A DNA stretch of 64,000 nucleotides. Origin: Escherichia coli. GTDB taxonomy: Bacteria; Pseudomonadota; Gammaproteobacteria; Enterobacterales; Enterobacteriaceae. A program made the position numbers and the translations under genes. A model generated the notes under the pieces. It did no database searches and was not told the DNA's origin. It saw nothing but the letters and a program-made list of their open reading frames with translations. The stretch lies in assembly GCF_046105845.1 (NCBI RefSeq), contig NZ_CP151004.1; one strand, given 5' to 3'. Positions 58,030 through 63,088 of the stretch are shown here, piece by piece. Position 1 is the first letter of the stretch; each line of letters starts with the position of its first letter.

Positions 58030-60366
58030 ATGAAGCAAATTCGTCTGCTGGCGCAGTATTATGTTGACCTGATGATGAAGTTAGGTCTGGTGCGCTTCTC
58101 AATGTTGCTGGCGCTGGCCCTCGTCGTTCTTGCCATTGTGGTACAAATGGCGGTAACCATGGTGCTGCATGGTCAGGTCGAAAGCATTGATGTTATTCGT
58201 TCTATCTTCTTTGGTTTGCTGATTACGCCGTGGGCGGTCTACTTTCTATCGGTGGTCGTCGAGCAACTGGAGGAGTCACGGCAACGTCTGTCACGGCTGG
58301 TGCAAAAACTGGAGGAGATGCGCGAGCGCGATTTGAGCCTCAACGTTCAGTTAAAAGATAATATTGCCCAGCTAAATCAGGAAATCGCCGTTCGTGAAAA
58401 AGCGGAAGCAGAACTGCAGGAAACCTTCGGCCAACTGAAAATTGAAATCAAAGAGCGCGAAGAGACACAAATTCAGCTCGAGCAGCAATCCTCATTCTTA
58501 CGTTCCTTCCTTGACGCTTCACCCGACCTGGTTTTTTATCGTAACGAAGATAAAGAGTTTTCCGGCTGTAACCGCGCGATGGAGCTGCTGACCGGAAAAA
58601 GCGAAAAACAACTGGTTCACCTGAAACCTGCTGATGTTTACTCACCGGAAGCCGCTGCGAAAGTCATTGAAACCGATGAAAAAGTGTTCCGTCATAATGT
58701 GTCACTGACCTATGAGCAGTGGCTGGATTATCCCGACGGACGCAAAGCCTGCTTTGAAATTCGTAAAGTGCCGTACTACGACCGCGTGGGTAAACGTCAC
58801 GGTTTGATGGGCTTTGGTCGCGACATTACCGAGCGTAAGCGGTATCAGGATGCGCTTGAACGGGCCAGCCGCGACAAAACGACGTTTATCTCCACCATCA
58901 GTCACGAATTGCGTACACCGCTGAACGGTATCGTCGGCCTGAGCCGCATCCTACTGGATACCGAACTCACCGCCGAGCAGGAAAAATATCTCAAAACCAT
59001 CCATGTTTCGGCCGTCACGCTCGGGAATATCTTCAACGATATTATCGACATGGATAAGATGGAACGGCGTAAGGTCCAGCTTGATAATCAGCCGGTTGAT
59101 TTCACCAGCTTCCTTGCCGATCTGGAAAATCTCTCCGCATTGCAGGCGCAACAAAAAGGATTGCGCTTTAATCTGGAGCCTACGCTGCCATTACCGCATC
59201 AGGTCATTACCGACGGGACGCGTTTACGGCAGATCCTGTGGAACCTCATCAGTAACGCCGTCAAATTCACCCAGCAAGGCCAGGTTACTGTGCGCGTGCG
59301 CTACGATGAAGGCGATATGCTGCATTTTGAAGTGGAAGACTCTGGTATCGGCATTCCGCAAGATGAGCTGGATAAAATCTTCGCCATGTATTACCAGGTG
59401 AAAGACAGTCATGGCGGTAAACCTGCCACCGGCACCGGTATTGGTCTGGCCGTTTCTCGTCGTCTGGCGAAAAATATGGGCGGCGATATTACGGTTACCA
59501 GCGAACAGGGCAAAGGTTCAACCTTTACGTTGACGATCCACGCACCGTCGGTAGCAGAAGAGGTTGATGATGCGTTTGATGAAGACGATATGCCTTTACC
59601 GGCGCTGAATGTGCTGCTGGTGGAAGATATTGAACTGAACGTGATTGTCGCACGCTCTGTGCTGGAAAAATTAGGTAACAGCGTTGATGTCGCCATGACC
59701 GGCAAGGCGGCGCTGGAAATGTTTAAACCGGGCGAATACGACCTGGTGTTGCTGGATATTCAGTTGCCAGATATGACCGGGCTGGATATCTCTCGTGAAC
59801 TGACGAAGCGTTATCCGCGCGAGGATTTACCGCCGCTGGTGGCCTTAACCGCTAACGTGCTGAAAGACAAGCAAGAGTACCTCAATGCTGGAATGGATGA
59901 TGTGCTGAGTAAGCCGCTTTCTGTTCCGGCGCTAACCGCGATGATCAAGAAATTCTGGGATACCCAGGATGATGAGGAAAGTACGGTGACGACAGAAGAG
60001 AACAGTAAATCAGAAGCATTGCTCGATATTCCCATGCTGGAACAGTATCTCGAACTTGTAGGACCGAAGCTGATCACCGACGGGTTAGCGGTGTTTGAGA
60101 AGATGATGCCGGGCTATGTCAGCGTGCTGGAGTCGAATCTGACGGCGCAGGATAAAAAAGGCATTGTTGAGGAAGGACATAAAATTAAAGGTGCGGCGGG
60201 GTCAGTGGGGTTACGCCATCTGCAACAGCTGGGTCAGCAAATTCAGTCTCCTGACCTTCCCGCCTGGGAAGATAACGTCGGTGAATGGATTGAAGAGATG
60301 AAAGAAGAGTGGCGTCACGACGTAGAAGTGCTGAAAGCGTGGGTGGCAAAAGCCACTAAAAAATGA
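58030..60366 (+). CDS. arcB: aerobic respiration control sensor kinase ArcB
   Basis: 778-aa ORF with two transmembrane segments, PAS, a histidine-kinase H-box (ISHELRTPLN), receiver and HPt domains. Confidence 0.96.
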   Translation: MKQIRLLAQYYVDLMMKLGLVRFSMLLALALVVLAIVVQMAVTMVLHGQVESIDVIRSIFFGLLITPWAVYFLSVVVEQLEESRQRLSRLVQKLEEMRERDLSLNVQLKDNIAQLNQEIAVREKAEAELQETFGQLKIEIKEREETQIQLEQQSSFLRSFLDASPDLVFYRNEDKEFSGCNRAMELLTGKSEKQLVHLKPADVYSPEAAAKVIETDEKVFRHNVSLTYEQWLDYPDGRKACFEIRKVPYYDRVGKRHGLMGFGRDITERKRYQDALERASRDKTTFISTISHELRTPLNGIVGLSRILLDTELTAEQEKYLKTIHVSAVTLGNIFNDIIDMDKMERRKVQLDNQPVDFTSFLADLENLSALQAQQKGLRFNLEPTLPLPHQVITDGTRLRQILWNLISNAVKFTQQGQVTVRVRYDEGDMLHFEVEDSGIGIPQDELDKIFAMYYQVKDSHGGKPATGTGIGLAVSRRLAKNMGGDITVTSEQGKGSTFTLTIHAPSVAEEVDDAFDEDDMPLPALNVLLVEDIELNVIVARSVLEKLGNSVDVAMTGKAALEMFKPGEYDLVLLDIQLPDMTGLDISRELTKRYPREDLPPLVALTANVLKDKQEYLNAGMDDVLSKPLSVPALTAMIKKFWDTQDDEESTVTTEENSKSEALLDIPMLEQYLELVGPKLITDGLAVFEKMMPGYVSVLESNLTAQDKKGIVEEGHKIKGAAGSVGLRHLQQLGQQIQSPDLPAWEDNVGEWIEEMKEEWRHDVEVLKAWVAKATKK

Positions 60367-60478
60367 CCCCGGCTAGACCGGGGTGCGCGAATACTGCGCC
60401 AACACCAGGGAAATCTTGGCTGCGCCGTAAATTATTATGATGAGTTACAAGGGCACAGCACTGTTTTTCAGGCCGCAC
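60358..60478 (-). ncRNA. arcZ: Hfq-dependent sRNA ArcZ (RyhA/SraH)
   Basis: The minus-strand sequence GTGCGGCCTGAAAAACAGTGCTGTGCCC...CACCCCGGTCTAGCCGGGGTCATTTTTT matches ArcZ as I remember it, with its terminator hairpin and U6; its 3' end overlaps the arcB stop codon. Confidence 0.9.
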
Positions 60479-60595
60479 GCAGTTAAGATAGCAAAACTTA
60501 AATGATTTGTTACATGAATCAGTTAAATGTGTGATGCGTAGCATTTTTATTAAAAAAATTAATGTGTTTCAGTCAATTGCGAAAGGATGATCACA

Positions 60596-61249
60596 ATGAA
60601 GAAAATTGGCGTAATTCTGAGCGGATGCGGCGTCTATGACGGTTCTGAAATTCATGAAGCGGTGTTGACGTTGTTAGCTATTTCACGCAGCGGTGCGCAG
60701 GCGGTCTGCTTTGCACCGGATAAGCAGCAGGTTGATGTTATCAACCATTTAACGGGCGAAGCGATGACGGAAACGCGCAATGTGCTGATTGAAGCGGCAC
60801 GAATAACGCGCGGTGAAATCCGTCCTCTGGCTCAGGCCGATGCCGCTGAACTGGATGCGTTGATTGTGCCGGGGGGGTTTGGCGCGGCGAAGAATTTAAG
60901 CAATTTTGCCAGTCTTGGTAGCGAATGCACCGTTGACCGTGAATTAAAGGCGCTGGCACAAGCGATGCATCAGGCCGGAAAACCGCTTGGTTTTATGTGT
61001 ATTGCCCCGGCGATGCTGCCGAAAATTTTCGATTTCCCGCTGCGTTTGACCATCGGTACTGATATCGATACCGCAGAAGTGCTGGAAGAGATGGGCGCGG
61101 AGCATGTGCCGTGTCCTGTCGATGATATCGTGGTTGATGAAGACAATAAGATTGTCACCACCCCGGCATATATGCTGGCGCAGAACATTGCAGAAGCGGC
61201 GAGCGGCATTGATAAGCTGATTTCCCGCGTGCTGGTTCTGGCTGAATGA
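60596..61249 (+). CDS. elbB: DJ-1/PfpI-family protein ElbB (YhbL)
   Basis: 217-aa product ([23 protein letters not shown]...); AGGA Shine-Dalgarno 8 nt upstream of the ATG at 60596. Confidence 0.92.
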
Positions 61250-61974
61250 GTAAAAGCCGCTTAACGGTGTTTAGTTTCATTCGCCGTTTTCTTCTGCGGT
61301 TAATGGTTGTCCTCGCCGTTTTCTGGGGCGGGGGCATCGCGTTGTTTAGCGTTGCGCCTGTTCCTTTCTCAGCGGTAATGGCCGAGCGACAAGTCAGCGC
61401 CTGGCTGCATGGCAATTTTCGTTACGTGGCACATTCTGACTGGGTCAGTATGGATCAAATTTCGCCGTGGATGGGACTGGCGGTGATTGCCGCAGAAGAT
61501 CAGAAGTTTCCTGAGCACTGGGGCTTTGATGTCGCCTCCATTGAGCAAGCCCTGGCCCACAACGAGCGCAATGAAAACCGTATTCGCGGTGCGTCAACGA
61601 TTTCTCAGCAGACAGCCAAAAATCTCTTTTTATGGGATGGGCGTAGCTGGGTTCGAAAAGGGCTGGAAGCTGGATTAACGCTGGGGATAGAAACAGTCTG
61701 GAGCAAAAAGCGTATCCTGACGGTTTACCTGAATATCGCCGAATTTGGCGACGGTGTGTTTGGCGTCGAAGCTGCGGCACAACGTTATTTCCACAAACCC
61801 GCGAGCAAACTTACCCGGTCGGAAGCTGCATTACTGGCAGCTGTATTACCTAATCCACTTCGTTTCAAAGTCTCCGCGCCATCGGGCTACGTGCGTGGCC
61901 GTCAGGCGTGGATTTTACGGCAGATGTATCAGTTAGGCGGTGAGTCGTTTATGCAACAGCACCAGCTGGATTAA
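61246..61974 (+). CDS. mtgA: monofunctional peptidoglycan glycosyltransferase
   Basis: 242-aa ORF with an N-terminal membrane anchor and a transglycosylase motif (RGASTISQQ); overlaps the elbB stop. Confidence 0.93.
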
Positions 61975-62603
61975 GCTTCGCGCGAAGTGAGGGCCAGCGT
62001 TTTGCTCTCACGAGGTTGCAGATCTTTCTGCAGGGCAATAGCCAGCGCCGGTTGGGCGATAAATCGTTTCCATAACCGCTCTTGCTTACGCAGACAACAC
62101 CACTTCGACCAGGTCGCCAGTGGAATCAATGTGCTTTCACCAATGTTGTCGCAGACGACTGGGATAACCTCTGACTCACTGATGCGGTGACAGAGGATAT
62201 TCTGCGGCTTCAGCGACATCGTCACGATACGGTTATCCTGCAAATAACGCTTCAGCTGTTTCAGTAACTGGCGCAGTTGTGCAATGTCTTCTTCGTAACG
62301 GCATTGTTCTGCAAATTCGGTCAGCGTAATGGAAGGCTTGCCGTCGAAATCGGCAATCACATCGTAGACATAACCGGTTCCGCAATCCGTCTCAACGGTA
62401 CCGTGATAGCGCGGTATTCCACTCCAGTCTTTTAACCGGCGACCAAGATGCGCGTAGTACTTTAACTCACGGCGGATCTCTTTATCGCCACCATCGCCAC
62501 GATGGTAGACAATCTTGATACAGCGTTGGGCATCTTCCGGATGCGCATAACATTTCCGATGTCTTCCGGTGCCCAGGGGACTTTGTTCAGATAAGCGAAT
62601 CAT
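61971..62603 (-). CDS. yrbL: PhoP-regulated protein YrbL
   Basis: 210-aa ORF recognised as YrbL; convergent with mtgA, with a 4-nt overlap of the gene ends. Confidence 0.88.
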
Positions 62604-62653
62604 GCCATCTCCTGGAAATATTTTCTGACGATCTCCAGTATGGTCGATTAACT

Positions 62654-62670
62654 TAAACGAAACCTAAACA
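62654..62670 (-). promoter_or_regulatory. PhoP box upstream of yrbL
   Basis: The minus strand reads TGTTTA-GGTTT-CGTTTA, a direct hexamer repeat with a 5-nt spacer, 51-67 nt upstream of the yrbL ATG. Confidence 0.6.
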
Positions 62671-62815
62671 ATGCTTCTTAAGGTTTTCTTAAGGTTCTTC
62701 TGAAAGTAAAAAGCGCACGAAATGTACAATTGACGTTGATTGAGAACGATTTCAGTACGCGCTTTTCTTATTGCCGGGGGAGCTTGAAGGGATTTGAATG
62801 TCAAAGTGATGAAGA

Positions 62816-63088
62816 TTAATCTTCATCAAAACCAGAGTTAAAGAGGGCGATAACGGCGGCCAGTGCTTCCTCTTCCTGTGGACCGGTCGCTTCAACTTCA
62901 ATCTGCCGTCCTTTGGCAGAATCCAACATCAGCAGCGCAATAACGCTGTTGGCTTCAGCCTCGGTGCCTTCGTCATTACGTAACAGCACTTCAGCGTCAA
63001 AACCTTGCATTAATTCAAACAGCTTCATTGCAGGCCGGGCATGCATGCCCAGCTTGTTTGTGATTTCAACAGTTTGCTTGACGGTCAT
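62816..63088 (-). CDS. npr: nitrogen-PTS phosphocarrier protein NPr
   Basis: 90-aa HPr-like ORF ([20 protein letters not shown]...), with the active-site His in GMHARPA. Confidence 0.93.

Follow-up and report, generated by a model that had tools for sequence, protein, structure and literature searches.

The arcZ gene of Escherichia coli converges on arcB and overlaps its last two lysine codons and stop codon

Two bacterial systems in which a small RNA (sRNA) is encoded opposite the 3' end of its neighbor resemble the arrangement considered here. GadY is, like ArcZ, an Hfq-binding sRNA antisense to the 3' end of the mRNA of its neighbor gadX, and at both the GadY/gadX and the ArcZ/arcB locus double-stranded RNA has been reported and RNase III is implicated. 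The outcomes differ, since GadY stabilizes or processes gadX-gadW, whereas ArcZ lowers the level of arcB mRNA. Furthermore, ArcZ is mainly trans-acting and has hundreds of targets, unlike the cis-encoded GadY. McaS is likewise trans-acting, and its gene extends into the 3' UTR of abgR, with which it is convergent. In contrast to the mutual influence reported for ArcZ and arcB, McaS reportedly leaves abgR unaffected.

The closest described system is the ArcZ locus of E. coli K-12 itself (SraH/RyhA; RF00081; b4450). ArcZ ties the sensing of oxygen and energy status by ArcB/ArcA to the RpoS stress response, motility, mutagenesis and virulence in enterobacteria, and its tail-to-tail overlap with arcB is the proposed physical basis of a mutual repression. 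In the literature, ArcZ figures as an antisense RNA acting in cis at the 3' end of arcB, the two regulating each other negatively; ArcZ reportedly lowers arcB mRNA and arcB mRNA lowers ArcZ, and several papers report that ArcZ destabilizes the antisense arcB mRNA. A 2024 review, on the other hand, treats the antisense role of arcB mRNA on ArcZ as speculation. The same review states that phosphorylated ArcA (ArcA-P) represses arcZ by binding to its promoter, whereas in one study ChIP did not reveal any site for ArcA ahead of arcZ. The Hfq-dependent ArcZ is cut by RNase E at RN/WUU (the slash marks the cut) just before CCCUGGUGUUGGCGCA, giving rise to an active 3' form of about 56 nt (review), and it is this processed form which carries the seed and activates rpoS. 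Owing to the overlap with arcB, outright deletion of arcZ has been avoided by experimenters.

We analyzed a stretch of 64,000 nucleotides of E. coli DNA (the window), in which the original prediction had placed ArcZ at 60358-60478. These coordinates coincide exactly with the curated K-12 gene: in a pairwise alignment, 121 of 121 bases of the stretch at 60358-60478 (- strand) are identical to K-12 arcZ, so that the comparison which had been proposed as a check revealed full identity and hence no substantial divergence. Across 60300-60600, 300 of 301 bases match K-12 MG1655, and the lone difference is a substitution at 60541, 63 nt ahead of the first base of arcZ; the gene itself and the promoter region up to -62 are hence the same as at the characterized K-12 locus. 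The RNase E site, the seed and the terminator are therefore shared, and the neighborhood is alike as well, with arcB convergent, elbB divergent and the same 9-bp overlap. In the annotation of MG1655, arcZ occupies 3350577-3350697 (+; 121 nt) and arcB 3350689-3353025 (-), overlapping by 9 bp. In addition, the Rfam family RF00081 (ArcZ) matches 60371-60478 (- strand) with 120.8 bits (E 5.8e-28), the gathering score being 66, spanning positions 1-106 of the 106 in the model, and this is the sole gathering-level Rfam match in the entire window. The identity that had been claimed for the RNA is thus borne out by the Rfam score and the K-12 alignment together. Judged by its sequence, the stretch at 60358-60478 represents E. 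coli arcZ, encoding the Hfq-dependent sRNA ArcZ, with the G at 60478 as the +1 of the full-length 121-nt RNA. A lack of transcripts of about 121 and 56 nt from this strand, which would speak against the identification, is at odds with the published work on ArcZ.

The elements expected of such a gene can be located along the - strand. An intrinsic terminator hairpin, ACCCCGG-UCUAG-CCGGGGU, lies at 60366-60384. A terminator scan of 60200-60700 returned a single site, on the - strand, consisting of ACCCCGGTCTAGCCGGGGT and then the tail CATTTTTTAG; the arms of the inverted repeat are found at 60366-60372 and 60378-60384, and the minimum free energy (MFE) fold of the 121-nt ArcZ ends in the terminator hairpin followed by an unpaired tail. 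This tail comprises the 3' U-run of six U (60358-60363), identified by direct reading and by the scan, which is expected to be the Hfq-binding tail, in keeping with the role in Hfq binding given for it in the literature. Next to the hairpin lies the invariant ArcZ core GGUGUUGGCGCAGUAUUCGCGC (60385-60406), which forms part of the seed and of the internal stem-loop in the Rfam structure line, and which recurs as an exact 22-mer in the genomes of at least 120 Enterobacterales species. A predicted RNase E site, AG/AUU in the context ...CCAAG/AUUUCCCUGGUGUUGGCGCA, fits the RN/WUU consensus and stands directly ahead of the conserved seed; cleavage there would yield the processed ArcZ of about 56 nt (60358-60414), whose 5' end would lie at 60413 or 60414. 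Upstream of the gene, visual inspection starting at the annotated +1 suggested a putative promoter, with a -10 element TATCTT at 60485-60490, a -35 element GTAACA at 60508-60513 and a spacer of 17 bp. This candidate would agree with the consensus at 8 of 12 positions, which is under the cut-off of the scan, and when 60200-60700 and 60300-63000 were scanned for sigma-70 promoters, nothing exceeded that cut-off. Compared with the ArcA box WGTTAATTAW, the putative promoter contains just matches with two mismatches, at a frequency which does not exceed the background of 0.52 per 180 bp.

On the + strand, arcB extends from 58030 to 60366 and encodes 778 amino acids, ending in ...AKATKK, with its stop codon TGA at 60364-60366 (ORF list, NCBIfam and RefSeq). 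The protein scores 1483.1 bits against the NCBIfam equivalog NF008302 (cut-off 838), residues 1-778 aligning to profile positions 1-779 of 779. The original prediction that arcB and arcZ converge and overlap at the stop codon is confirmed: arcB lies on the + strand, arcZ on the - strand, and 60358-60366 is common to both. By direct reading, in agreement with the K-12 annotation, these shared 9 bp are AAAAAATGA on the + strand (Lys-Lys-stop) and UCAUUUUUU at the 3' end of ArcZ; the pair is accordingly a cis-antisense, 3'-overlapping convergent one whose opposite-strand overlap amounts to 9 bp. The + strand at 60352-60389 reads ...GCC ACT AAA AAA TGA CCCCGGCTAGACCGGGG TGCGCG..., from which it can be seen that the six U with which ArcZ ends face AAA AAA, the final Lys-Lys codons of arcB, in antisense, and that the UCA spacer of ArcZ (60364-60366) is antisense to the TGA stop. 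It had been predicted that the terminator hairpin, too, lies antisense to the last codons and stop of arcB. This holds for the U-run and the UCA spacer, but the hairpin touches the stop codon only at base 60366, and the remainder of it is located 3' of the arcB coding sequence (CDS). ArcZ's binding to the arcB 3' UTR has been reported to take in 6 nt upstream of the stop codon, and the 6 nt found at this position are AAAAAA, exactly the reported ArcZ-bound stretch.

The arrangement is widely maintained. Within the species, 5416 of 5426 complete E. coli genomes contain the 301-bp stretch, 5394 of them with at least 99% identity. Beyond the species, a comparative set was assembled by looking for exact copies of the 22-nt ArcZ core in one genome per species, which yielded at least 120 Enterobacterales loci and, by its design, favors species with an unchanged core and leaves out those with seed changes. 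Dickeya, Pectobacterium, E. amylovora and Edwardsiella fall outside this set. In the 120 species genomes listed from this search, arcB is located upstream of the ArcZ core and convergent with it, and layouts were assigned after the arcB frame had been read at each of these loci. A canonical layout, in which ArcB ends in Lys-Lys encoded by an A-run of 6-8, the stop codon abuts the hairpin and the overlap measures 9-11 nt, is found in 99 of the 120 (stop codon TGA in 68, TAA in 31). The stop codon falls within the A-run in seven, two show a longer overlap resulting from a one-base difference in the A-run, possibly a homopolymer error, and three were left unassigned. The other nine, belonging to Pantoea, Mixta and Chimaeribacter, have no overlap; all nine retain the A-run, the TGA and the hairpin, and their ArcB, which stops upstream, mostly lacks the KK end and terminates in EK, KP, DK, KQ, QA or KS. 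Given the 5416 of 5426 E. coli genomes and the 99 of 120 listed Enterobacterales species, the layout is not due to chance. The CDS overlap itself is dispensable, as illustrated by the nine listed species and by P. carotovorum, in which it is absent according to the 2024 review. That review puts the overlap at usually ten bases, and the present tally adds numbers to what reviews state, namely an overlap of about ten bases as a rule, with exceptions.

The RNA features are retained along with the layout. The spacer between hairpin and U-run is UCA or UUA without exception among the variants counted, and each of the 121 sequences inspected has a U-run 5-9 long. A hairpin is predicted for every one of the 54 distinct 3' tails, with energies from -8.7 to -17 kcal/mol. 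Of 39 distinct variants, 38-39 preserve the seven pairs of the terminator stem, and pairs 6 and 7 show double changes between G-C and A-U. These pairs were counted by a script anchoring both arms, since a MAFFT alignment of the tails placed its gaps at the 5' end and not in the loop and was thus unsuitable.

The reading which we favor, with a probability of about 0.9, is that arcZ is a gene convergent with arcB whose tail overlaps the Lys-Lys-stop end of arcB, and that read-through arcB mRNA pairs with ArcZ, leading to mutual repression. Transcription of arcZ would proceed from 60478 leftwards and end at the intrinsic terminator opposite the Lys-Lys-TGA of arcB. Transcripts of arcB would in turn continue through arcZ and thereby match the whole of ArcZ, or most of it, in perfect complementarity, and the resulting duplex would be cut by RNase III or otherwise degraded. 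The loss of both partners in the duplex would amount to mutual repression and could act as a switch between a state of high ArcB/ArcA with low ArcZ and the reverse state. As a by-product, the Lys-Lys tail of ArcB would be dictated by the U-tail which ArcZ needs.

An alternative, which we consider unlikely, is that the overlap reflects genome compaction only and has no regulatory role. In that case arcB mRNA would end at a hairpin shared by both genes and acting as a bidirectional terminator, complementarity would not exceed about 27 nt, and ArcZ would influence arcB, if at all, by an indirect route, via ArcA or RpoS circuits or via the trans-acting seed. The small size of the annotated overlap, its absence from the nine listed species and P. 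carotovorum, and the reserve of the 2024 review towards the antisense mechanism would all fit such a view. It conflicts, however, with the papers reporting that ArcZ destabilizes arcB mRNA, and furthermore with the properties of the + strand and of the double-stranded RNA recovered from this locus in vivo, as outlined below.

Bidirectional intrinsic terminators of convergent genes likewise involve one GC-rich hairpin with an A-run on one side, but their defining feature, a U-run on either strand, is missing from the arcB (+) side here. On this strand the hairpin is followed by GUGCGCGAAUAC (GUGCGCG in the fold), without a U-run; what stands after the hairpin is GTGCGCGAAT, and the site was returned by the scan on the - strand only. 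The locus is therefore no canonical bidirectional terminator, and we rejected this reading. A terminator scan of 60300-61735 found no terminator-like site on the + strand. One candidate for an arcB terminator on this strand, a long-loop stem GCUGCGCC...GGCACAGC followed by UGUUUUUC, was discarded as the fold gives it no support. The hairpin is accordingly expected to terminate efficiently only ArcZ. As the + strand has no intrinsic terminator behind arcB, transcription of this gene probably continues across the arcZ region. Next in line on this strand comes elbB (60596-61249, +; K-12 annotation and NCBIfam ElbB equivalog). The genes arcB, elbB and mtgA share one orientation, arcZ being placed antisense between the first two, and elbB follows arcB on the same strand in 67 of the 97 loci with enough flanking sequence.

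Double-stranded RNA has been recovered at arcZ in vivo. Among the RNase III products captured by p19, a 332-bp dsRNA cluster, S-273, maps to arcZ (U00096.2 3,348,440-3,348,771) and is the fourth most abundant sRNA-associated dsRNA cluster in stationary phase; arcZ was also flagged in two earlier, independent data sets of dsRNA or overlapping transcripts. Whatever the offset between the two sequence versions, the 332 bp of S-273 far exceed the 121 nt of arcZ. We take the offset from U00096.2 to U00096.3 to be about 1978 bp, which would place S-273 at about 60306-60637 of the window. The lack of a + strand terminator and the extent of this cluster together suggest that the RNA-RNA complementarity probably covers all of ArcZ and not just 9 nt. 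The partner of ArcZ in the S-273 duplex could, instead of arcB read-through RNA, be the elbB leader or other transcripts.

The comparison of species also bears on the question of whether the shared bases are maintained for the RNA or for the protein. Where arcB stops upstream, the A-run, the TGA and the hairpin are kept as non-coding sequence, so that the constraint on these bases appears to follow the RNA. We consider it somewhat better than an even bet that it is the U-tail of ArcZ which makes ArcB end in Lys-Lys and holds its stop codon in a fixed place, and that the actual duplex forms between ArcZ and a long arcB 3' UTR. The poly-U which ArcZ would need for termination and Hfq binding reads AAA AAA on the opposite strand, the arcB stop would be tolerated as the UCA or UUA interruption and thus fixed between hairpin and U-run, and in lineages which gained an upstream arcB stop, the old codons would persist unchanged as pure RNA sequence. 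If this is true, the locus would show cleanly, over a whole bacterial order, how the terminator of an sRNA prescribes the sequence of a protein, and the regulatory duplex would consist of ArcZ and the long arcB 3' UTR, not of the 9-nt overlap.

The converse, that AAAAAA-TGA is kept on behalf of ArcB because a Lys-Lys C-terminus is functionally required, and that the ArcZ terminator exploits a sequence already present, is in our view distinctly improbable. ArcB does end in KK in all 99 of the listed canonical species, but the ArcB proteins with an upstream stop have other ends in spite of an intact A-run, TGA and hairpin, and the residues directly preceding KK vary freely. We therefore rejected the reading that ArcB needs its KK end, as the constraint tracks the RNA and not the protein. 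That the stretch might be a diverged or silent remnant of ArcZ, or mere arcB 3' UTR, as the failure of the consensus scan to detect a sigma-70 promoter-like site and the missing annotation in one strain (see below) might suggest, is next to impossible in view of its 100% identity to the characterized K-12 gene, the promoter region to -62 included, the full-length Rfam match and the identity of at least 99% in 5394 genomes.

The arrangement of arcZ and arcB is thus real and already known from the literature of 2001-2010; that it is known for ArcZ, as had been noted at the outset, is evident from the K-12 annotation and from the 2024 review. What the present analysis adds is modest: a quantified conservation of the layout, the suggestion that ArcB owes its Lys-Lys tail to the U-tail of ArcZ, and some caveats of annotation. 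Earlier descriptions of the ArcZ feature are reportedly those of Argaman in 2001, Papenfort in 2009, and Mandin and Gottesman in 2010.

As to annotation, the RefSeq record NZ_CP028379.1 (PGAP) contains the same 301 bases without an arcZ feature. The Rfam match, which ends at 60371 inside the terminator, would leave a gap of 4 nt to arcB in place of the overlap. It had been cautioned that the sequence could be mis-annotated as arcB 3' UTR; the PGAP record lacking arcZ lends substance to this concern, but the choice it implies is a false one, as the two strands differ. The + strand of the arcZ stretch probably constitutes arcB 3' UTR or read-through RNA, and the - strand encodes ArcZ. The locus is easily missed, being invisible to ORF tracks, unannotated by PGAP in the strain checked, and having its overlap hidden by the Rfam coordinates.

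The gene arcZ (60358-60478, minus strand), which encodes the 121-nt sRNA ArcZ, is convergent with arcB (58030-60366, plus strand) and overlaps it by 9 bp. The Rfam model RF00081 matches 60371-60478 and ends inside the terminator hairpin (60366-60384, minus strand), and therefore an Rfam-based annotation is 13 nt shorter than the curated gene and replaces the overlap by a 4-nt gap between arcZ and arcB. In the PGAP-annotated RefSeq record NZ_CP028379.1 (E. coli O145 RM9872), which carries the same 301 bp as 60300-60600 (positions 1501-1801 of the locus taken from it), only arcB and elbB are annotated there and an arcZ feature is absent; likewise, none of the 15 best-matching records carries an arcZ feature under the 301-bp match. 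Across 60300-60600, O145 strains are identical to the window (301/301), and the sole mismatch to K-12 MG1655 is located at 60541 (plus strand, G in the window versus C in MG1655), which is 63 nt 5' of the first base of arcZ and falls within the AT-rich intergenic DNA separating arcZ from elbB. A mechanical ORF of 62 aa (60356-60544, minus strand) spans all of arcZ. With an ATG 66 nt 5' of the arcZ start, it would not be carried by the ArcZ transcript and is presumably spurious.

Among the listed loci of Enterobacterales species genomes sharing the exact 22-nt ArcZ core (numbered L), 30 of the 97 with enough flank have no elbB homologue within the downstream sequence covered; these belong to Erwinia, Pantoea, Rahnella and Kluyvera (for example L014, L023, L039, L038 and L062). 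The canonical overlap, with ArcB ending in Lys-Lys and the arcB stop abutting the ArcZ hairpin, is nonetheless present in many of these 30 loci, and thus the overlap is independent of the elbB neighbour. At the start of the elbB ORF itself (plus strand), two in-frame ATGs occur at 60587 and 60596 (ATG ATC ACA ATG AAG); RefSeq starts the protein at the second (217 aa), and the longer form aligns to the NCBIfam profile from its residue 4 onwards.

In loci of Pantoea, Mixta and Chimaeribacter (L013, L022, L034, L040, L044, L085, L105, L107 and L112), arcB stops 4-58 nt short of the A-run that is complementary to the ArcZ U-run, leaving no CDS overlap. Even so, these loci keep the A-run, TGA and hairpin as non-coding sequence; the loss of overlap looks derived, with the former codons preserved for the RNA. 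In Pantoea sp. 1.19 (L026) and Serratia sp. M24T3 (L104), the A-run differs in length by one base, which puts arcB into another frame, and the ORF reaches into the terminator loop in the former and 36 nt beyond the start of the ArcZ core in the latter. These may be either genuine extended overlaps or homopolymer sequencing errors.

The final arcB codons also contain a small hairpin (60342-60357, GGUGGC-AAAA-GCCACU), which on the minus strand lies immediately 3' of the ArcZ U-run. It looks specific to Escherichia, because other genera have different codons at this place.
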